Virus record (IMG/VR): IMGVR_UViG_3300020045_002743
Coordinates: 1 to 64,000 of that record
Strand: one strand, 5' to 3'
Origin: a virus
DNA length: 64,000 bases
Of the stretch, positions 3,833 through 55,998 are shown piece after piece. A model generated the notes under the pieces. It did no database searches. It worked only from the letters and a program-made list of their open reading frames with translations, and was not told where the DNA came from. Within the stretch, counting starts at the first letter, position 1. Each line of letters opens with the position of its first letter. The position numbers were made by a program, and so were the translations under genes.

Positions 3833-4202
3833 GTGGCTTGATTTTTGCAGAAAGCGCGCATCAGAAATACCCTACACACAATCAAAGGAACGAGTGTACA
3901 GCTGCATCCTCAATCATAAAGGTAGGTTAATTGCACACGGAGCTAACGAATATTCACGTAGTCACCCAACACAAAAAGCTTATTCTGTCAAGGCTGGTAT
4001 GAGTGAGGGTAGGATTTTTCTTCATAGTGAGTGCAGATGTATCATTCAGGCTGCTAAACATAATCCTAAAGGCTGCAAGCTGATAACCGCTCGTGTAAAT
4101 CGCCAAGGAAAAATCCTTGACAGCTACCCATGCATATCGTGTATGATGCAAATCAAAGATTCGGGATTCATAACATCAATTGAATTTGGTATTGGAGAAT
4201 AA
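3825..4202 (+). CDS. Zinc-dependent cytidine/CMP deaminase-family protein
   Basis: HSE...PCISC zinc-binding motif. Confidence 0.75.
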   Translation: MTKWLDFCRKRASEIPYTQSKERVYSCILNHKGRLIAHGANEYSRSHPTQKAYSVKAGMSEGRIFLHSECRCIIQAAKHNPKGCKLITARVNRQGKILDSYPCISCMMQIKDSGFITSIEFGIGE

Positions 4203-4295
4203 ATAGAATGAAAAGTTTTTGTTGTCGTTAGTGTTTATAGCTTCTATCTATAGTTTCAGCAGCTAAATTTAACCAAAAGAATTGCAAAATAATCA

Positions 4296-4323
4296 TTGCA
4301 CGAATCAACAGATGTGGTAAGCT
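4296..4323 (+). promoter_or_regulatory. sigma70-type promoter
   Basis: TTGCAC-16 bp-TAAGCT with TG extension and AAAATAAT upstream. Confidence 0.6.
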
Positions 4324-4415
4324 TCTTGATAGCTGGCCTTGTCCTAGTTGTATGAGTTTGATTAGGGATGTGGGCTTTATTAACGTAATTGAATGTGGGA
4401 TTGAGGAGAGATAAT

Positions 4416-4961
4416 ATGAAAATTACGCTTTGCGGCAGTGCACGTTTTGAAGAATACTTTAAATTCTGGAATGAAATGCTTTCTTTATATGGGCACACTG
4501 TCTACACATTGTCAGTTTACCCAAGCCAGAAAGAATCAGGTAAAGATTGGTACGATGACCAAGAAAAGAAAACTCTTGATCAGGTACATTTGGATAAGAT
4601 TAGCAACTCAGATGCAATTTTTGTAATCAATCCTTTTGCATATCTTGGTGAATCAACACTTAAAGAGATTGAGTTTGCAAAGCGCCATGGTAAAGAAATC
4701 TTCTGTCTTGAGTCATGGGGGCAAGGTCATGGAATTAGTAAGCACATGCATTACAAACGTGTTGTAGATTTGGCTAAGTGGTTTGGTGTTCCTGATGAGT
4801 TTGGTAGTCCCATTCGTACTTGTGATTTCCGACAAAACACTTCTCCGTTATTGTTAGGTGGTGCTAGTAATATTCGTAGTAAGATTTTTACTTGTGAGAA
4901 GTTGTTTGAAATTTCTCTTTACGATAAAGCTGGAATTGACTTTGATATTAAGGATATTTAA
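4416..4961 (+). CDS. Nucleoside 2-deoxyribosyltransferase-like (NDT fold) protein
   Basis: MKITLCGS...HLDKISNSDAIFVIN..YLGEST.KEIEFA...GK pattern; RBS GAGGAGAG. Confidence 0.65.
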   Translation: MKITLCGSARFEEYFKFWNEMLSLYGHTVYTLSVYPSQKESGKDWYDDQEKKTLDQVHLDKISNSDAIFVINPFAYLGESTLKEIEFAKRHGKEIFCLESWGQGHGISKHMHYKRVVDLAKWFGVPDEFGSPIRTCDFRQNTSPLLLGGASNIRSKIFTCEKLFEISLYDKAGIDFDIKDI

Positions 4962-4962
4962 A

Positions 4963-5923
4963 ATGACTCCTCTACAATACCTAAAACAAATCCTCCAAGA
5001 ACATCTAGAAGTGTGTCAAGAAAGTGACGACTATAGTGCTGCTATTGAGGATGCCCTGTATGGAGCTGATCTTAGTGAGATTGGTATTATAGAGTGGTGC
5101 AATCACTGGCTAATTGACGTAAGAACTATTTCAGAGACTGATTTTGATTACCTTCGTGGTGCTCAGTTTGTGAATGATCAGTGGAATATTATTAAGGAGA
5201 AAGAAGATGTATAAACCAGAGGATTGTTTTGTAATTTTAACTCAAACAGATAGTCAAGGTAATGAGAAGTCTTTCAAGATTGATTCTTTTGTAGAGCCTG
5301 CTTTCTCAACACCAGAACGTTATCACTGGGCAACAAAAGATGAGAATGGTTTGTGGGAGTTGCGAGTTAAACACAAGGGTGGTCGTATAGCTAAATTCAA
5401 GTTGACAGAAGAATCTTATCAAAAGTATGGTATTGAAAAACTTGACCCATTTATTGATAATTTCAATCTTGAGTATAATGATGAAGATTTGGTAGAAGTT
5501 AAATGAAACACACCTTCGCCAGTTCCATCCTATCCCAACTAAAAGACAGCGGCCTCACTGTCCACAAAGACTTGAAAGAGAATCAATGGGGAATCTACGA
5601 TGGAGCTGTAGATAATAGCAATTCTCTACTGATTCGTTCACGTTCATTAGGGGATCTTATGCGACAGTCGGCTAAAGAGTTTGGATTAAAGTGAAAATAA
5701 ACTGTTGACAGGGGCTTTGTGTGGAGTATACTTAAGCCATAGGAAAGGAAAAACCTTTCTCCAGATAGGAAGCACAGACATGACCTACTCCATCGTTGAT
5801 ATTCAAACCAAAGCAGTGGTTGGTAAACCATATAATGATCGCGTGAGAGCCCGTAATCAAGCTAACAAGCTTGACTTGAAATATGGTGCAGTGCGATTTA
5901 CAATCCGTGTTAACTACGCTTGA
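4963..5923 (+). other. Four small hypothetical genes
   Basis: ORFs from 4963, about 5207, 5503 and 5780. Confidence 0.7.
5705..5732 (+). promoter_or_regulatory. sigma70-type promoter
   Basis: TTGACA-16 bp-TATACT. Confidence 0.75.
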
Positions 5924-22661: not shown

Positions 22662-22818
22662 TCTCCTTGAGCATATTCCAAGTCTACTTCTTGATTCCAG
22701 AAAGGATCTACATCAAAATTGTGTTCTGTTACACACAAAAAATCTTCGTAGTCGTCACCAAGCTCATAAACCAAACCATTCAAATTCATTATACTCTCCT
22801 TTGTGTTAATCTGTCGCT

Positions 22819-22847
22819 ATTGTAAGCCGACAGATTGTTTGAGTCAA
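22819..22847 (-). promoter_or_regulatory. sigma70-type promoter with -10 in the loop of an inverted repeat
   Basis: TTGACT-17 bp-TACAAT; AATCTGTCG/CGACAGATT 22808-22836. Confidence 0.7.
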
Positions 22848-22849
22848 GC

Positions 22850-23074
22850 TTATTTTAGAATTATTTCAATCTTGGGTGTTTTCCTCATCTGCCTGTCTTG
22901 TACTGACATTTCAGATAGAGATTGTACCTTGAGTTGATAGCCCGTTTCAGGAATCAATTCTACAACCCTATCAACCAACCAGTTCATACCCTCTTCTGTG
23001 TATGGTATTTTATTATCTTTTATAAGCTTAAAGATAATATCATTTATGTACTCTTCTGTAATCATTTTAGTCAC
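22850..23074 (-). CDS. 74-aa protein resembling the tail sheath C-terminal segment
   Basis: IIFKLIKDNKIPYTEEG vs sheath IYFRLINSLKIPMTNPG; GY...DRQMR vs GW...MRAAR. Confidence 0.65.
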   Translation of the reverse strand: MTKMITEEYINDIIFKLIKDNKIPYTEEGMNWLVDRVVELIPETGYQLKVQSLSEMSVQDRQMRKTPKIEIILK

Positions 23075-23840
23075 CTTGTGGAGCCGGTTGTACAGGTTTT
23101 GGTTTAGATTTCCGGCCTAATTTCTTAGCAACTTCGTCTTTTTGTTTATCATACGCTTGCAAGGCACGAGTAACAGCATCTTCAACGATCTTATCAATTG
23201 TCAAAGGTTTTTCGCCATCTTCTTGAACAAGCCCACATTCCTCACAATTAGGATCACCACAACCTTGAGCTTCTCGTGCTGCTGCGTAAATATCTAGACG
23301 GTCCATGATTTCATCTGCATCCAAGTAGATGTCTGTACCAGAAATTACAGTTTCAATTTCATTTTCTGTCAAGAAATTAGCATAACGTTTACGCATCTGT
23401 TTGTGGCTTTGCTTGCGGATGAACTCAGCTTGTGCAAAATTTTCATGTTCTTTTCCCCATGAGCCATAGCTGCACGTATGGCAAAAGAACTCGGCAGTAT
23501 CTGAAACACCCCATGTGTCACAAGCCAAGAAGATGAATGTAGCCATACTACCACAATCACTTTCAATAAATCCAATTACGTTTGCCTCTGATTCATTGAT
23601 TGCGTTTATGATCATGTTACCAGTGTTTACGCTGCCACCCCCACTCCGGATTCTAATTACCACCTCATCTTGGGCCGTAGCCGTGCGAAGAATGTTACAA
23701 AGGTCTAGGTAATCCTCAGCTTCCCCAATTGAACCAGTAAGATAATAATCATAACGAACACCACGAAACTCTGTAGTGAATGTTTTATTGTTTCCGATGA
23801 ATGGGTACAGCCCCATTTCACTATTTGATTTCTCTTTCAT
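23067..23840 (-). CDS. ClpP-like serine protease
   Basis: IRIRSGGGSV, CGSMATFIF (catalytic Ser), FFCH (His), DIYLDADE. Confidence 0.85.
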   Translation of the reverse strand: MKEKSNSEMGLYPFIGNNKTFTTEFRGVRYDYYLTGSIGEAEDYLDLCNILRTATAQDEVVIRIRSGGGSVNTGNMIINAINESEANVIGFIESDCGSMATFIFLACDTWGVSDTAEFFCHTCSYGSWGKEHENFAQAEFIRKQSHKQMRKRYANFLTENEIETVISGTDIYLDADEIMDRLDIYAAAREAQGCGDPNCEECGLVQEDGEKPLTIDKIVEDAVTRALQAYDKQKDEVAKKLGRKSKPKPVQPAPQGD

Positions 23841-24646
23841 TATTTATTCTCCTGTTCACGATCTTTCATCATACCAATTGCAATATCTTTAACCAAACCT
23901 CCGCGAACAATTTCTGAAGGGTCAGAGAAGTCAATAACCGCAACACCTTTCAAACCATGTCGTTGTGCGAATGACATAAACCATTCAAGACCTGACTCAC
24001 CTTGAATATCCTTCTGTAAAATGTCCCCGCAGAGAATCAGCTTACATTGATCAGAAACTCGCGTAACAATACTTTGCATTTCTTCTTTTGTGGTCTGTTG
24101 AGCTTCATCAATCACCAGATACGATGGTAGATCAAAGGACCTACCCCTGATACTTTCAACTTCCTGCACCTGAATTTCACCAGATTCTCCGTCCTTAAGT
24201 GCAATTTCGTAGGCTCCGGCACCAATACGGGACTTGATAGTGTCTAGGACGTTGCGCACATAGGGGTAGAGCTTTTGCAATGAACTTCCAGGCTTATATC
24301 CTGATGTTTTACCGGTTTGAACATAGGCACGAGCAACAATAATTTGTTTAATTTCATTCTTGCGGAACTTATCAGCAGCTACAACAGCCGCACAAAAAGT
24401 CTTACCTGTGCCATGAAGACCAAGGCATACTATTGCTTTAATCTCAGGATCTTCCAAAAGACGGAAGTATTCTTTCTGTTTAGCAGTCTTGGCAACAACT
24501 GGCGGTGGATTATTACGTTCTTCTAAAAACTTTTCCTTAATCTCAGGTTTAACACCACCATTTCTGGTGGACCGTGTTTTCTTACGAGGTACTGCCACTT
24601 CAACACCATCAACTACGGCCAAAAACGCCCGAGACTTATTGCCCAT
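23840..24646 (-). CDS. phoH: PhoH-family ATPase
   Basis: GLHGTGKT Walker A, IRGRSF, VIDEAQ, LCGD..QKD. Confidence 0.93.
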   Translation of the reverse strand: MGNKSRAFLAVVDGVEVAVPRKKTRSTRNGGVKPEIKEKFLEERNNPPPVVAKTAKQKEYFRLLEDPEIKAIVCLGLHGTGKTFCAAVVAADKFRKNEIKQIIVARAYVQTGKTSGYKPGSSLQKLYPYVRNVLDTIKSRIGAGAYEIALKDGESGEIQVQEVESIRGRSFDLPSYLVIDEAQQTTKEEMQSIVTRVSDQCKLILCGDILQKDIQGESGLEWFMSFAQRHGLKGVAVIDFSDPSEIVRGGLVKDIAIGMMKDREQENK

Positions 24647-41835: not shown

Positions 41836-43191
41836 ATGGCTCATGAACTCGTTAGACTTAGGTCTAAATTGTTCGACACTCCTTTGCTAGTGGACTCTAA
41901 AAGTTTTGAATCTATTCTTAACTATGTAGATAAACGTTGTGAAGGTAATGTTGAAGTAACTCCAAAAGCTGACAATGAATTTTCAATGTACAGCACACTG
42001 CATTACCAAGAAAGTAATTTAGGTGTTATCCACATCTCAGGGCCACTGACCAACAAGTCTACTGGGTGGGAAGCGTTCTGTGGTGGCACTTCTTACGAGA
42101 GTATCAAAGAAGACTTCGAAGCTCTACTAGAGGCAGGCACTAAGACTGTAGCCTTTATGGTTGAGTCTGGCGGCGGTGAAGCGTATGGAATGATGGATAC
42201 TGGCAATTATCTGCGTAAATTAGCAGATGAAAACGGTGTAAAGATCATCTCCTATGTAGATGGACTATCAGCATCTGCTGCTTACGGCCTCACTGCCATC
42301 TCCGATGAAATCATCACTAACAAGAACTCTGAAATTGGTTCTATTGGTGTTTTGATTCGTTTGATGAATGATTCTAAAGCTCTTGAAATGGAAGGTTACG
42401 AACGTAGCTTTATTTCAGCGGGTACTCAGAAGATTCCATTTGCAGAAGATGGATCTTTCCGTAAAGAATTCTTGGATGATCTTCAATACAAAGTAGATGC
42501 TCTCTACAAAGATTTTACTGAATATGTTGCCGAACATCGGAACTTGTCAGTAGAAGCAGTTAGGAATACTCAGGCAAACACCTTCCTTGCAGAAGATGCA
42601 ATTGCTTTGGGCCTAGCTGATAAGGTAATGACGCAAGAAGATTTTTATTCTTACCTATCGGGCCAAGCCCAAAATAACAAAGAAGGAAGTTCGATGAGTA
42701 ATCGTATCTTTAAGTTTAGTAAAACCAATAATGAGGAAACTCTAGAAATGTCTCAACTTGCTCAATTGCAAGAACAGCTCACTGCTGCTAATGCACAACT
42801 CTCAGAGTTCACTTCTGTAAAAGAAGCTTTGGCCTCTGTTCAAAGCGTACTTGGTGAAAAAGAAGCAGCTCTTGCTGAAGCTTTGGGTAAAGTTGCCCAA
42901 CTTGAACAAGTTGCTGTAACTACTAAGCTTAACGCTCGTAAAGAAAAATTGGCTGCTGTAATGGCATCCGATAAAGTGGACAGCGTATCTGCTGCCTTGG
43001 CTTCTCTTGATGATGAAGCTTTCTCCGTTGTTCTGGCAGGTTACGGCCTACAGAAGCAACAACTTGAAGCTAGCGACCTGATGAATGAAATCGGTGACCA
43101 AGGCTCCGAAGTTGAAACCCCAACCCAAGCCTCTGGTGATGACCTCACTCTGAAAATGGCCCAAGCTAAATATAAAAAGGAAGGTAAATAA
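41836..43191 (+). CDS. Prohead protease (S49) fused to scaffold
   Basis: VESGGGEA, SASAAY, IGSIGV; coiled-coil C-terminus. Confidence 0.88.
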   Translation: MAHELVRLRSKLFDTPLLVDSKSFESILNYVDKRCEGNVEVTPKADNEFSMYSTLHYQESNLGVIHISGPLTNKSTGWEAFCGGTSYESIKEDFEALLEAGTKTVAFMVESGGGEAYGMMDTGNYLRKLADENGVKIISYVDGLSASAAYGLTAISDEIITNKNSEIGSIGVLIRLMNDSKALEMEGYERSFISAGTQKIPFAEDGSFRKEFLDDLQYKVDALYKDFTEYVAEHRNLSVEAVRNTQANTFLAEDAIALGLADKVMTQEDFYSYLSGQAQNNKEGSSMSNRIFKFSKTNNEETLEMSQLAQLQEQLTAANAQLSEFTSVKEALASVQSVLGEKEAALAEALGKVAQLEQVAVTTKLNARKEKLAAVMASDKVDSVSAALASLDDEAFSVVLAGYGLQKQQLEASDLMNEIGDQGSEVETPTQASGDDLTLKMAQAKYKKEGK

Positions 43192-45062: not shown

Positions 45063-45092
45063 ATTCAGTCAAATTTAACTAGGAGATTGAGA

Positions 45093-45566
45093 ATGCATCA
45101 CAACGCAAAACATGGTAAATACAAAACAAAGACTTACGCTTCTTATCGAGCAATGATTCAAAGGGTTACGGATGAAAATCATAAAACTTTTGAACACAGT
45201 GGAGGTAGGGGTATTAAGATTTGTGATCGTTGGCTTGATCCTGTTAAGGGAGTTTTAAACTTCTTTGAGGATATGGGTGAACGCCCTGAAGGAACCACAT
45301 TAGACCGTAAAGATGTTAATGGGGACTATTCCTTAGAAAATTGCAGGTGGACAACTTACTCTGAACAGAACTTCAACCAGACTCTTAAGTCCCATAATAC
45401 ATCAGGTAAAACTGGAGTTAGTTGGAACAAAGAAAAAGAGAAGTGGGAAGTTTATATTTCAAAGAATAAGAAAGTAATCAAACTTGGTTATTTTAAATCT
45501 TTGGAAGAAGCTATCAAGGTAAGACAGGAAGCCGAACTAGAATACTATGGTTACACAAAGGAATAG
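45093..45566 (+). CDS. HNH-AP2 homing endonuclease
   Basis: GGRGIKIC.RW, DMGERP.G.TLDR.D.NG.Y...NCRW, NTSG.TGV.W. Confidence 0.88.
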   Translation: MHHNAKHGKYKTKTYASYRAMIQRVTDENHKTFEHSGGRGIKICDRWLDPVKGVLNFFEDMGERPEGTTLDRKDVNGDYSLENCRWTTYSEQNFNQTLKSHNTSGKTGVSWNKEKEKWEVYISKNKKVIKLGYFKSLEEAIKVRQEAELEYYGYTKE

Positions 45567-46410: not shown

Positions 46411-46878
46411 ATGCCATCTACATTAAAAATAGATACTTCAATATGGGACAAGATAAAGAGAAATATCTTGGTTGGTAATGATCTTGAAGTTTCTACCGGA
46501 TTCTTTGAGGGGTCTATCTACGGATCTGAAAATAACAATGCTCAAGTAGCCCAAATCGCTAGGGATAACGAAGAGGGTACAGTAAAGAACCCAACACGTC
46601 CTTTTATGAGGGTTGGGTTTGGTGGCAAGGTAGCCAAGCAGCTGCCTGAGTTGTTCAGAGCAAGCATGAAACGTATCGCTGAGGGTAAGACCACATTCAG
46701 GCAAGAATACACAAAGTTAGGCCCAATTCTTACCTCTGAAATGAAGCAATCTATTATCGAATGGTCCACACCACCTAACAGCCCTTCAACGATTGCAGAG
46801 AAGGGTTTTAATGATCCTTTGATCAAAACAGGGAAGATGTTGGAGTCTGTGGAATCAAAAGTTGAGGCTAAAACATGA
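46411..46878 (+). CDS. Neck/tail completion protein
   Basis: NE.GT...P.RPFMR, PPNSPSTI..KG...PLI.TG. Confidence 0.75.
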   Translation: MPSTLKIDTSIWDKIKRNILVGNDLEVSTGFFEGSIYGSENNNAQVAQIARDNEEGTVKNPTRPFMRVGFGGKVAKQLPELFRASMKRIAEGKTTFRQEYTKLGPILTSEMKQSIIEWSTPPNSPSTIAEKGFNDPLIKTGKMLESVESKVEAKT

Positions 46879-47408
46879 GTATTTATTCTCAGCTAGAAAA
46901 TGGGTTGTACAATGTGGCTTTGGTGGCCCTTTCAGAGTTTACTAATCCACAGGTAATTTTCAGCCACCTTAATGGCACAGAACCTGCTGAAAGCTTTGTG
47001 ATAATCAATATCCTAAGTAACACTCAGCAAGGACATCACACCACTTCAACACTTACAGATACTCAAGAGATATTAGCTACTCAAGCATCTTATGAAGTTT
47101 TTGTACAATTTAGTTTTTGTGGTAGTAAGTCTGGAGAGATGTCTTCAAGCTTCAATCAAAGAATTAATAACAATCACAAAGTGTTTGAAGAGTTGGCTAA
47201 AAACAAGATGGGTGTTATGCGTAAAAGTCCTATGCGTAGAGCCCCACAGAAAAGAGATACTAAGTGGGTTGAATACCATAACTTAGATGTTACCTTTTCC
47301 TATACAGTAGTTACACAAGAGCTTGTAGATGTTATTGAAGTTGTAATTCTTCAAGATGTTATTACAGGCGATGTATTCACTGTTCCCCCAGATATCGTTA
47401 CACCATAA
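46875..47408 (+). CDS. Tail terminator
   Basis: Position immediately before sheath; size. Confidence 0.65.
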   Translation: MSIYSQLENGLYNVALVALSEFTNPQVIFSHLNGTEPAESFVIINILSNTQQGHHTTSTLTDTQEILATQASYEVFVQFSFCGSKSGEMSSSFNQRINNNHKVFEELAKNKMGVMRKSPMRRAPQKRDTKWVEYHNLDVTFSYTVVTQELVDVIEVVILQDVITGDVFTVPPDIVTP

Positions 47409-47446: not shown

Positions 47447-48739
47447 ATGTCAGAACTCGACCAAATCGTACAGCTCCAGCTGACTCGCGGCTCTACTCCG
47501 GTGGAGACGGCCAGCTTTCAGATCCCCGGCATCTTAGCTACATTTACCAATTTCTCGGAACGTACCCGCACTTATACCGATATTGATGGTGTTGGCGAAG
47601 ACTTCCGTACAACTGATCCAGTTTATATTATCGCAAGTAAACTGTTTGGTCAGTCTACTGTTGGTGCTGTTCCTCCAAGTATTGTAGTAGGTCGTCGTCA
47701 AGTTAACACTGTAAATGGCTCTGTAACCGTACAGAACTCTACTCCTTACACTGTAACTATTAACGGTACTACTTATAGCTTCACCAGCGATGCTTCAGCC
47801 ACTGCAATTGAAATCATTGCAGGCTTGGACACAGCAGTAGGTACAAGCCCGGTAGGTGTAACTTTCACTGACAACTTGGATGGTACTTTCACTGTAGGTC
47901 CAACCGTCGCAGGTACTCCATGGTCTTTCCGTGCATCTAGTAACATTACTCTTGCAAATGCTACACCTACCGAGAGTTATGCAGATGCTGAAGTAGCCAT
48001 GAACGAAGACAACGGTACTTGGTATGCCCTGTTTACCGATACCCATGTTCAAGCTGATGTAGTTGCTTTGAGTAACGTGATTGTAGCACAACGTAAGATC
48101 TTCGGTACTTCTTCACAAGATGCTGCTGTAATCACTACGGGTACTACTGACGTGGCTGCTGTGCTGAGTGCTGCAAGTGCTGGTCGTACTTATGGCGTGT
48201 ATCTCCCTACTGCTGACACTGAATACCCAGAAGCAGCTTGGGCTGGTAGTCAGCTGGCTTATACCCCAGGTTCTAATGATTGGGACTTCAAACGTGCCGT
48301 AGGCGTTACTGTCAGTAAACTTAGTGACACTGCTCGTGTAAATCTTCGTAACAAGAACATGAACATGTACACTCGTGGTGGCGGTGTTAATATCTTCCAA
48401 GACGGTAATATGTTTGATGCTTCTCCGATTGATGAAGTTATTGGTATTGACTGGCTGTATGCTCGTTTGCAAGAAGGTATCTATTTCCGTTTGATCAACT
48501 CCCTAAAAATCCCTATGACCAACCCAGGCCTAGTTATTATCGAGAATGAAATCCGTTCTGTACTCTCACAAGCAGAGGCTAACGGTTTGATTGATCGCGG
48601 ATGGAATGTAACCACACCTGATGTACTCGACATTCCAGAAAACATGCGGGCAGCTCGTACAGCTGGTGTATTCAAGTTTAATGCACGTCTTGCAGGGTCC
48701 ATACGTCGCGTCCAGATCACCGGGTTCTTGTCTGTATAG
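47447..48739 (+). CDS. Tail sheath protein (DUF3383-like)
   Basis: PGS..W.FK...GV, IDEVIG.DWL, KIP.T..G, LAGSI. Confidence 0.9.
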   Translation: MSELDQIVQLQLTRGSTPVETASFQIPGILATFTNFSERTRTYTDIDGVGEDFRTTDPVYIIASKLFGQSTVGAVPPSIVVGRRQVNTVNGSVTVQNSTPYTVTINGTTYSFTSDASATAIEIIAGLDTAVGTSPVGVTFTDNLDGTFTVGPTVAGTPWSFRASSNITLANATPTESYADAEVAMNEDNGTWYALFTDTHVQADVVALSNVIVAQRKIFGTSSQDAAVITTGTTDVAAVLSAASAGRTYGVYLPTADTEYPEAAWAGSQLAYTPGSNDWDFKRAVGVTVSKLSDTARVNLRNKNMNMYTRGGGVNIFQDGNMFDASPIDEVIGIDWLYARLQEGIYFRLINSLKIPMTNPGLVIIENEIRSVLSQAEANGLIDRGWNVTTPDVLDIPENMRAARTAGVFKFNARLAGSIRRVQITGFLSV

Positions 48740-48853: not shown

Positions 48854-49375
48854 ATGGCCGATGGCGTATTGGGCTCATACAGCCCCGAAGCAATAGTTGT
48901 AATCATCAGTAAGGGTGACTTTGTTCACCGTATTGGTGGTTACGCTGATGGTACTTTTCTAAATATTTCACGTATCACTCCAGCATCAGAACTCTATGTA
49001 GCCTCTGATCTACAAGCTGGCCGGGTTAAACGTCGGAATAAAGCAAGTACTATTTCTTTGACACTGTTTCAACAAAGTTCAAGCAATGCTATTTTGCAAG
49101 AATTGCAACGTGCTGACGAAGAAGACGATAGAAATTCTTGGGTTTTCTCTATCACCATCAAAGACACATCTGGTACTAGTGTATTCTCATCTAACCAAGC
49201 ATTCATTGCAACGGTTCCAGATGTTGGGTATTCAAATACCACTGAAACTCGTGACTGGATGATCAGTGCCGTAAGTATGGATTCTCACGTTGGTAGCAAC
49301 ATGGAGTTTGATGCTGCTGAAGTTGCAGCAATGGCAGCAGTCGGTGCTCAGGTTCCGGCTCGGTGGCAGCTCTAA
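48854..49375 (+). CDS. Tail tube protein
   Basis: YSP..., I.GYADGTF, ISLTL.Q.S.SN; follows sheath. Confidence 0.8.
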   Translation: MADGVLGSYSPEAIVVIISKGDFVHRIGGYADGTFLNISRITPASELYVASDLQAGRVKRRNKASTISLTLFQQSSSNAILQELQRADEEDDRNSWVFSITIKDTSGTSVFSSNQAFIATVPDVGYSNTTETRDWMISAVSMDSHVGSNMEFDAAEVAAMAAVGAQVPARWQL

Positions 49376-49391
49376 TAGGTAAGGAAGTATA

Positions 49392-49892
49392 ATGGCCCGA
49401 TTAGCTACTTATATGCCAGAGGAAGTAACTATTCTTCTTGCTGGTATTCCAGTCTCAGGATTTATCCAAGGGTCATTTATTTCCGTTGACAAGGATGTCA
49501 AACCTTTTACATCTAAACGTACTGCTGATGGAACAGTTAGTCGGATGTACAATAATGACCAAACCTATACAGTTACTTTGACTCTTTACAGCGGTAGTGA
49601 TTCTAACCAACTTCTAACAAGACTTTGGCAATTAGATGAAATTACCCAAAGAGGTAAGTTTCCCTTGATGATCAAGGACGGTAGTGGATCAGATTTATTC
49701 TTTTCCACAACTACATGGATTGAGGGTATTCCTTCTTTAGTGAAGAGTAATCAATATGAACCTCGTGCTTGGACATTACGTTCAAGCTCAGCAATCATAA
49801 ATATTGGTGGTAATGGTGATGCTGAGTCTATCTTAAATGATATTGTCAGTATTGCTGCTTCTGCTCTTCCAGCATTGAATGGATTGCTTTAA
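49392..49892 (+). CDS. Tail tube paralogue
   Basis: Same pattern as 48854. Confidence 0.7.
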   Translation: MARLATYMPEEVTILLAGIPVSGFIQGSFISVDKDVKPFTSKRTADGTVSRMYNNDQTYTVTLTLYSGSDSNQLLTRLWQLDEITQRGKFPLMIKDGSGSDLFFSTTTWIEGIPSLVKSNQYEPRAWTLRSSSAIINIGGNGDAESILNDIVSIAASALPALNGLL

Positions 49893-50390
49893 ATGACTAA
49901 TTCTTTTAGTGTTGAGACATATTCAGCTTCAGATGTGAAGTTATCTATTGGTGGTTCTATTATCACAGGATGGGATAACTTAAGTATCAATAGACGGGTA
50001 AAAGCTTTTACTCCTGTCTATGGTATTCGTGGTAAGAACACACGAGTTAAGAACGTAGATACTTCGGCAACCATTACTGTCACTCTTATTCAAACAGCAC
50101 AAAGTAATGACGTATTATCAGCAATACATGACTTGGATATTGATGAGGGTACAGCAAGGATTACCTTGACTCTTAAAGATAGTTCCGGCAGAAGTGTATT
50201 TTCAAGTAATGAGGCATTCATTACATCTTACCCTGCAAAATCTTTCTCTGGTGATTTTACTTATAACACTTGGGAAATTATTCTGCAGTCTACACAATCA
50301 TACACTGTTGGCGGAAATGGCAGGCCCAGCACTGGCCTTCTAGATAACATCATCAGTGATGCAACTGACTTTGTTAGTGGTTTATTTTAA
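49893..50390 (+). CDS. Tail tube paralogue
   Basis: Same pattern; ITVTLIQTAQSN.VL, LKDSSG. Confidence 0.7.
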   Translation: MTNSFSVETYSASDVKLSIGGSIITGWDNLSINRRVKAFTPVYGIRGKNTRVKNVDTSATITVTLIQTAQSNDVLSAIHDLDIDEGTARITLTLKDSSGRSVFSSNEAFITSYPAKSFSGDFTYNTWEIILQSTQSYTVGGNGRPSTGLLDNIISDATDFVSGLF

Positions 50391-55641: not shown

Positions 55642-55998
55642 ATAGATTTTCTACTAAATGAACAACATGATATTGTTTGGCACAACGGACCACTTTTGAA
55701 GTCTGATACCACACAACCTTTGATCGATACAGTTAGGCAGAGGTTGCTTATCCTCTTGAAGACGTTCCAAGGTGAGTGGTTCCTCGATACTACTTATGGA
55801 GTACCTTGGTATCAAAGTATACTTGGACGTAAGACTACAAAAGATGGTGTAGACCTAATCTTCCAGACAGCTATCTTATCAGAAAATGGAGTTAAGGAAA
55901 TTACATCCTTCTCATCCACCTTCGTTAAAAGACAATATTCCATGACTTTCTCTGTGAGAGTTAATGATGGTCAGATTACAGCTCCCATCACTATTTAA
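55642..55998 (+). CDS. gp25-like baseplate wedge protein, probable ATA start
   Basis: QRL...L.TF.GEWFLD...GVPW; AAGGAGGT RBS before in-frame ATA. Confidence 0.75.
   Translation: MDFLLNEQHDIVWHNGPLLKSDTTQPLIDTVRQRLLILLKTFQGEWFLDTTYGVPWYQSILGRKTTKDGVDLIFQTAILSENGVKEITSFSSTFVKRQYSMTFSVRVNDGQITAPITI

Follow-up and report, generated by a model that had tools for sequence, protein, structure and literature searches.

A gene outside the tail operon of an uncultured myophage encodes an arm-less relative of the tail-sheath handshake domain

Why would a contractile-tailed phage carry, apart from its tail genes, a small gene whose product resembles one piece of a tail sheath? The question is raised by a 71-amino-acid protein (here, the mini-protein) encoded in a 64,000-nucleotide stretch, hereafter the window, of a 91,262-bp IMG/VR virus record that derives from a contractile-tailed phage and is rated complete by CheckV. 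The piece at issue belongs to the four-stranded handshake sheet, a joint that is found universally in phage tails, tailocins, extracellular injection systems, and type VI secretion sheaths. In this joint, the two strands of sheath domain I accept an N-terminal strand from one subunit and a C-terminal strand from a neighbor, and the resulting four-stranded sheet holds contractile sheaths together (PMC9942802, PMC11915804, PMC8894135). The C-terminal domain of the Pam3 sheath consists of three helices and two strands; the Pam3 initiator gp21 resembles this domain in its core and takes up the arms of the first ring, and the terminator adds a strand of its own to the last sheath ring (PMC9942802). 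The same handshake occurs in Mu, whose gp25-like BW1 protein resembles sheath domain I (PMC11915804), and in AlgoCIS, where the helix attaching the sheath to the tube is located in domain I (PMC8894135; see also PMC6088184).

The mini-gene and its cassette

The first-pass annotation of this DNA had described a 74-aa ORF following a ClpP-like gene. The ORF (22850-23074, minus strand) and its position were confirmed, whereas its length probably needs correction. Translation from the alternative start GTG 23074 would yield 74 aa and overlap the upstream ClpP-like gene by 8 nt. ATG 23065 lies 1 nt past the ClpP-like stop, is preceded by a ribosome-binding site (AAGGTGA), and was also taken by the gene callers, the 71-aa product being on record as P0001. 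Judged by these sequence features, ATG 23065 is most likely the start. As first annotated, the mini-gene is remote from the tail genes: 25 kb separate it from the tail module, and it occupies the opposite strand, in a PhoH/ClpP-like/nucleotide-metabolism region among early or middle genes (Table 1). An Rfam scan around the mini-gene gave no match.

Table 1. Coordinates of the cassette and tail features in the window
Feature	Position (nt)	Strand	Remarks
PhoH-like ATPase gene	23840..24646	-	Pfam PhoH E 2e-42; first gene of cassette
ClpP-like serine protease gene	23067..23840	-	Pfam CLP_protease E 6.9e-6; phrog_1827 "ATP-dependent protease" E 8e-57
Mini-sheath gene	22850..23065	-	71 aa from ATG 23065; stop 22850-22852
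9-bp inverted repeat (AATCTGTCG ... CGACAGATT)	22808..22836	-	Read from sequence; just past mini-gene stop
Tail (neck) terminator	46875..47408	+	Pfam Phage_tail_terminator_9 E 2.7e-17; directly upstream of sheath gene
Own tail sheath	47447..48739	+	430 aa; Pfam DUF3383 E 1.6e-32; phrog_205 E 6.7e-93
gp25-like baseplate wedge protein (sheath initiator)	55696..55998	+	phrog_120 "baseplate wedge subunit" E 3.7e-26; Pfam GPW_gp25 E 0.0022, below cut-off

An inverted repeat and two promoter-like sites (22847-22819 and 22817-22788), which overlap this repeat, come after the stop of the mini-gene, which therefore appears to close a three-gene unit with the PhoH-like and ClpP-like genes. A promoter-like -10 element lies within the loop of the repeat. 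At the other end, a sigma-70-like site, which is a consensus match only, is located near the PhoH-like gene (24677-24649). A role of the ClpP-like gene as prohead protease was ruled out, as the phage has a separate head maturation protease at 41836-43191.

Comparison of the cassette (window 22850-24646) with its counterpart in the relative G016 (L091 4707-6506) revealed 39.5% identity for PhoH, 39.5% for the ClpP-like protein, and 42% for the mini-protein, whereas the genes flanking the cassette are 92 to 97% identical. This change from more than 90% to about 40% identity suggests that the cassette was exchanged as a unit (mosaicism), and the similar divergence of its three products argues that the mini-protein is constrained as much as the two enzymes. 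The space between the PhoH and ClpP-like genes is also one of the insertion places of homologues of a 159-aa ORF that the window phage carries in its structural module (45087-45566, plus strand) and that encodes a weak AP2 domain (E 8e-4). The places of these homologues (L090 4311-5078; L096 2924-3559 and 5023-5535; L091 7977-8480) differ among relatives, and this ORF behaves like a mobile homing-endonuclease-type gene.

Relationship of the mini-protein to DUF3383 tail sheaths

Two segments of the ORF had been aligned by eye with the C-terminal part of the phage's own sheath, and both matches were reproduced. BLASTP paired residues 13-30 of the mini-protein with residues 345-362 of the own sheath (9/18 identical, E 0.003), and an hhalign comparison of 12 mini-proteins with 17 sheaths joined the two segments in one colinear block of 63 columns, in which mini-protein residues 8-70 correspond to sheath residues 343-413 (E 0.0021). 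In the own sheath, this homologous stretch (nt 48473-48685) is followed by the C-terminal arm (residues ∼414-430). The own sheath is also the best non-self match of the family HMM among the 380 ORFs of the window, yet with a marginal E value of 0.59.

Library profiles and wider searches point in the same direction. P0001 matched phrog_205 ("tail sheath") with an E value of 0.0033 and positions 447-479 of Pfam DUF3383 with an E value of 0.016 (14.6 bits, below the cut-off of 34.9), while the family members P0006 and P0007 matched DUF3383 positions 376-411 (E 0.014 and 0.0016, both below cut-off); thus, different members match colinear parts of the same profile. Among 1.84 billion proteins, a HMMER profile built from four close mini-proteins retrieved P0017 (E 6.6e-4), whose sequence identifies it as a true sheath C-terminus: it matches DUF3383 above cut-off (E 2.2e-10) and is 35% identical to residues 322-430 of the own sheath (E 5e-17). 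P0142, P0143, and P0144 are full-length relatives of P0017 (353-377 aa; DUF3383 E 3e-33 for P0142). In pairwise comparisons, P0001 is 36% identical to P0017 over 67 aa (E 4e-14) and 30% identical to P0142 over 67 aa (E 6e-10), and P0007 is 34% identical to P0142 over 70 aa (E 5e-9). Consistently, a tblastn search of 2.3 Gb of GenBank phage DNA with P0007 found its best matches in annotated sheath genes, the family profile matches the sheath ORFs of two relatives, and the XM1 and Pam3 sheaths rank second and fourth, respectively, in a family profile search of 177,635 PDB sequences.

The alignments further define which part of the sheath is represented. The motifs KIPxTxxG and D/E-R-x-x-R-x-x-P are common to mini-proteins and sheaths, KIPxTxxG and D/E-R-x-x-R being the most conserved positions of the family, and G26 and R61 are invariant across both groups (alignment A5). 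Homology begins at about sheath residue 340 and stops before the last 16 to 19 sheath residues, with an 8-residue deletion after helix 2 in the mini-protein relative to the sheaths. The mini-protein thereby comes without the N-terminal arm, the C-terminal arm, and the outer domain, and no family member has an arm.

Structural predictions agree with this layout. The AlphaFold2 model of the mini-protein (mean pLDDT, 84.5) comprises two helices (4-18 and 24-37), a strand (43-48), a third helix (55-61), and a second strand (65-70). The model of the own sheath predicts helices at 328-352 and 359-378, a strand at 387-389, a helix at 398-401, a strand at 408-415, and the arm strand at 423-429, so that the order of elements in the mini-protein is that of sheath residues 339-415 and ends before the arm strand. 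Tail sheaths take the first six places among the Foldseek matches in the PDB, with XM1 at the top (probability, 0.99), and sheaths also lead the matches in a viral library. VIA-align superimposed the mini-protein on chain residues 379-481 of the 497-residue XM1 sheath with a Z score of 5.5, 71 of 71 residues aligned, and 28% identity. A search independent of Foldseek again placed the XM1 sheath first, but unrelated small alpha/beta domains came within one Z unit of it, with HAD-type cap domains tying at Z scores of 5.2 to 5.4; no gp25 chain was among the listed fold matches. A small alpha/beta fold alone is not specific, and the case for homology therefore rests on sequence and structure together. 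The profile or structure match to sheaths proposed as a check on the first-pass annotation is thus at hand in Foldseek and phrog_205, with Pfam DUF3383 staying below cut-off. Taken with the pairwise E values against P0017 and P0142, which are decisive, and the colinear profile matches, these data uphold the proposed kinship: by sequence and model, the mini-protein is truly, if distantly, homologous to the C-terminal domain I core of DUF3383 sheaths.

Resident tail genes, distribution, and origin

Sheath, gp25-like initiator, and terminator are all encoded by the window phage itself, and the mini-protein is thus not a substitute for any of these parts. An hhalign comparison with the gp25-like protein of the phage showed no similarity to the mini family (E 0.41). 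Three tandem paralogous genes (48854-50390, plus strand; 165-173 aa) that come immediately after the sheath gene all match phrog_280 ("virion structural protein"); they are probably tube-like, since they are located where the tube gene is expected. In the relative G028 (L076 4003-5100), a group I intron (Rfam RF00028, 95 bits, 4003-4290) with an HNH endonuclease ORF (4308-5072; Pfam HNH E 8e-5) interrupts the sheath gene at about residue 331-336, and the second sheath exon (to 5406) starts almost exactly where homology to the mini-protein starts. The sheath match ends early, covering residues 1-329, in 5 of 80 related loci (L076, L074, L077, L078, and L082).

The mini-gene is present in 4 of 31 near-complete relatives (G004, G008, G016, and G025) and lacking in 27. 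These genomes belong to a large, uncultured clade of myophages of 83 to 93 kb; among isolates, Pseudomonas phage vB_PsaM_M1 comes nearest (55% sheath identity), followed by Flaumdravirus and Pakpunavirus phages. In four of the five genomes with the mini-gene (window, G004, G008, and G016), it comes directly after the ClpP-like gene, from which it is separated by 1 to about 80 nt. In G025, the mini-gene is surrounded by small ORFs unrelated to it, and a ClpP-like gene is missing from the vicinity. The sheaths of G001 and G010 are 98% identical to that of the window phage, yet both genomes are devoid of the mini-gene; in such relatives, the ClpP-like gene is followed directly by a homologue of a 45-aa ORF. 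Given the 4 carriers among 31 relatives and the resident sheath, initiator, and terminator, an essential virion role is very unlikely, in keeping with the earlier proposal that the product is not a virion part.

Searches beyond the clade recovered few further members. The mini-family profile had no match in the closest isolates (vB_PsaM_M1, KIL3b, vFB297, and PPSC2), nor did mini-protein alignments in a scan of IMG/VR. A metagenome scan for close mini-gene DNA returned solely an unrelated high-GC contig (L097), and an ESM Atlas search gave low-score, unnamed viral clusters only. An exhaustive HMMER search of 1.84 billion proteins with the four closest sequences as query added about ten clusters of 72- to 105-aa proteins; two further candidates from this search, P0014 and P0015, were rejected as family members, both being repeat proteins. 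The isolated Otagovirus PPSC2 encodes a 63-aa protein, orf57 (P0005; L001 3992-4183), whose resemblance to the mini family is confined to the N-terminal half. It shares KIPMT with the family and aligns with it over 32 columns (hhalign E 4e-5; tblastn E 1), in a different gene context. This protein, possibly a distant relative from a cultured phage, was kept as a lead and not counted as a member.

About 12 family sequences at 32 to 42% identity keep the length, start, and stop of the ORF; P0002 and P0003 are closer relatives, at 77 to 90% identity. Neutral decay, which the first-pass annotation expected if its reading was wrong, is thus not what these sequences reveal: the frame stays open, with equal length and ends. 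On this sequence evidence, the mini-gene is a rare accessory gene that is conserved and under constraint.

The origin of the module can be narrowed to two options. The mini-protein of the window scores ∼21 bits against the own sheath and 38 to 46 bits against an uncultured lineage of short DUF3383 sheaths. Across 14 family members, BLASTP scores against this lineage (P0142, P0143, P0144, and P0017) range from about 20 to 46 bits, over 60 to 76 residues in most cases, whereas scores against the sheaths of the carriers' own genomes range from 10 to 27 bits and mostly concern short stretches. The first-pass annotation had taken the mini-protein for a piece of the phage's own sheath, which these scores do not bear out. 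Either the module was taken from the P0142 lineage, or it retains an ancestral DUF3383 consensus that was lost in the resident clade. The R..R..P motif, which is also found in the XM1 sheath, bears on the second one. P0142-type sheaths have no close relatives in IMG/VR or among GenBank phages and isolates.

Possible functions and comparison with known systems

Because domain I accepts arms and the mini-protein has none, the mini-protein corresponds to an acceptor module without donors. Through strand addition, such a module could attach to the free arms of DUF3383-type sheath subunits that are still unassembled, and it might also contact the tube, via the domain I attachment helix. A sheath subunit with occupied arms could not join a growing sheath, so that the mini-protein would cap, and thereby inhibit, sheath polymerization. 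The most plausible targets would be contractile tails other than the phage's own, namely, those of coinfecting or resident phages with DUF3383 sheaths, since the sequence affinity of the mini-protein is foreign and its context is accessory and nonlate. On sequence, model, and structural analogy, we rank first among the candidate functions, as possible although well short of probable, that the mini-protein is a cap, a dominant-negative inhibitor, or a regulator of sheath polymerization acting chiefly on other DUF3383-type tails. Several considerations weigh against this proposal. Across the clade, the sheath arms are well conserved, and they are similar to the arms of P0142-type sheaths; therefore, the cap might also poison the phage's own tail. 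This self-poisoning is the main difficulty of the proposal, no self-protection being evident. Effective inhibition would also need amounts comparable to those of the sheath protein, and the similarity to the P0142 lineage, which suggests foreign targeting, could perhaps just reflect a retained ancestral DUF3383 consensus. Our literature search on sheath mimics and virion-protein decoys found nothing on point.

The same structural logic would serve a helper of the phage's own tail assembly, which transiently holds the arms of new sheath subunits, prevents premature polysheath formation or aggregation, and hands the subunits over to the baseplate-tube template as a dispensable fitness factor. 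The own sheath is a possible ligand, because its arms are conserved in the carriers, and dispensability fits the patchy distribution of the gene. However, 27 of the 31 relatives have near-identical tail modules and do without it, the gene is placed within the PhoH/ClpP-like/nucleotide-metabolism region, at a distance of 25 kb from the tail genes and on the other strand, and its product has more in common with a foreign sheath lineage than with the sheath of the phage itself. We consider such a helper doubtful.

It is similarly unlikely that the fold has been co-opted for a task within the cassette, with the mini-protein serving the ClpP-like protease as an adaptor, as a regulator, or in substrate recognition and having no present role in the tail. 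The recurrent placement immediately after the ClpP-like gene, with short gaps in four of five genomes, speaks for this partnership, as does the divergence of the two proteins in step. Conversely, the G025 mini-gene has no such neighbor, most ClpP-like genes of the clade come without a mini-gene, and the motifs shared with sheaths, KIPxTxxG and D/E-R-x-x-R, are still the most conserved positions.

Another candidate function is that of an immune decoy or inhibitor, which would mimic a sheath surface seen by a host defense sensor and block or preempt that sensor. A small, patchily distributed accessory gene in an early or middle region is typical of counter-defense genes, and the mini-protein does copy a conserved virion-protein domain. 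We nonetheless judge this function quite improbable: the literature search found no sheath-sensing defense system, a PADLOC search with the mini-protein gave neither a match nor a related signal, and a faithful early mimic should set off a sensor, not keep it quiet.

Initiators and terminators use handshake-type modules structurally (PMC9942802, PMC11915804, PMC8894135), which would allow for a minor virion component, e.g., an extra handshake module at the baseplate or neck that happens to be encoded off the tail operon. That the mini-protein has such a place is very improbable, since the canonical initiator and terminator are present, finished tails are without free arms according to the cited structures, and 27 of the 31 relatives lack the gene. 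Finally, a chance resemblance or a functionless, decaying relic, e.g., the displaced second exon of an intron-split sheath gene, can draw on the indecisive fold search, the marginal HMM match to the own sheath (E 0.59), and the group I intron that splits the sheath genes of some relatives close to the homology boundary, but is hardly credible beside pairwise E values of 4e-14 and 6e-10 against true sheath sequences, an ORF kept open with equal length and ends in about 12 divergent sequences, the lack of an arm in all members, and the presence of a ribosome-binding site.

Returning to the capping of sheath arms, a wider proposition can be formulated, in which we place little confidence: free-standing sheath handshake domains may form a recurrent, so far undescribed class of phage "micro-sheaths" that act as weapons or regulators by capping arms, the present one, modeled on a foreign DUF3383 lineage, poisoning the tails of competing phages or of resident prophages or tailocins in the same cell. 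In solved structures, the handshake joint is engaged by the initiator and by the terminator or cap, and an arm-less, diffusible acceptor whose gene is not one of the tail genes would add a further kind of participant. If capping is true, the mini-protein could be a natural inhibitor or timer of sheath polymerization, phage-against-phage competition at the stage of virion assembly would be suggested, and a small, easily made reagent for blocking contractile machines would be at hand. If the mini-protein is instead tied to the ClpP-like protease or to a host sensor, it would show that virion domains are recycled for accessory functions.

Among known proteins, the DUF3383 sheaths (PF11863, phrog_205; XM1 gp6, 7KH1, and Pam3 gp13, 8HDW) share with the mini-protein colinear homology over its whole length, the motifs, and the order of helices and strands. 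They differ in size (350 to 500 residues versus 71), in having the outer domain, the arms, and the 8 residues deleted from the mini-protein, and in gene position, as the mini-gene is found among early or middle genes and not between the terminator and tube genes. The gp25, TssE, Pam3 gp21, and Mu gp46 initiators (PF04965) are likewise small, with a core resembling sheath domain I and a two-stranded acceptor sheet for the arms of the first ring (PMC9942802, PMC11915804, PMC8894135), and the mini-protein may be a module of this kind. In contrast to these initiators, it has no PF04965 match at E values of up to 1 and, at 71 aa, no wedge-clasping part, and the clade can dispense with its gene, which 27 of 31 relatives lack, whereas initiators are universal. 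Microproteins, which inhibit as copies of a domain, and shortened phage homologues like the small ArdA family (PMC12548430) provide the parallel of a short, single-domain derivative of a larger protein that is encoded as a separate accessory gene. The mini-protein, like these, would be expected to act by competing for the partners of its parent; this parent is a virion assembly protein and not a DNA mimic or a transcription factor.
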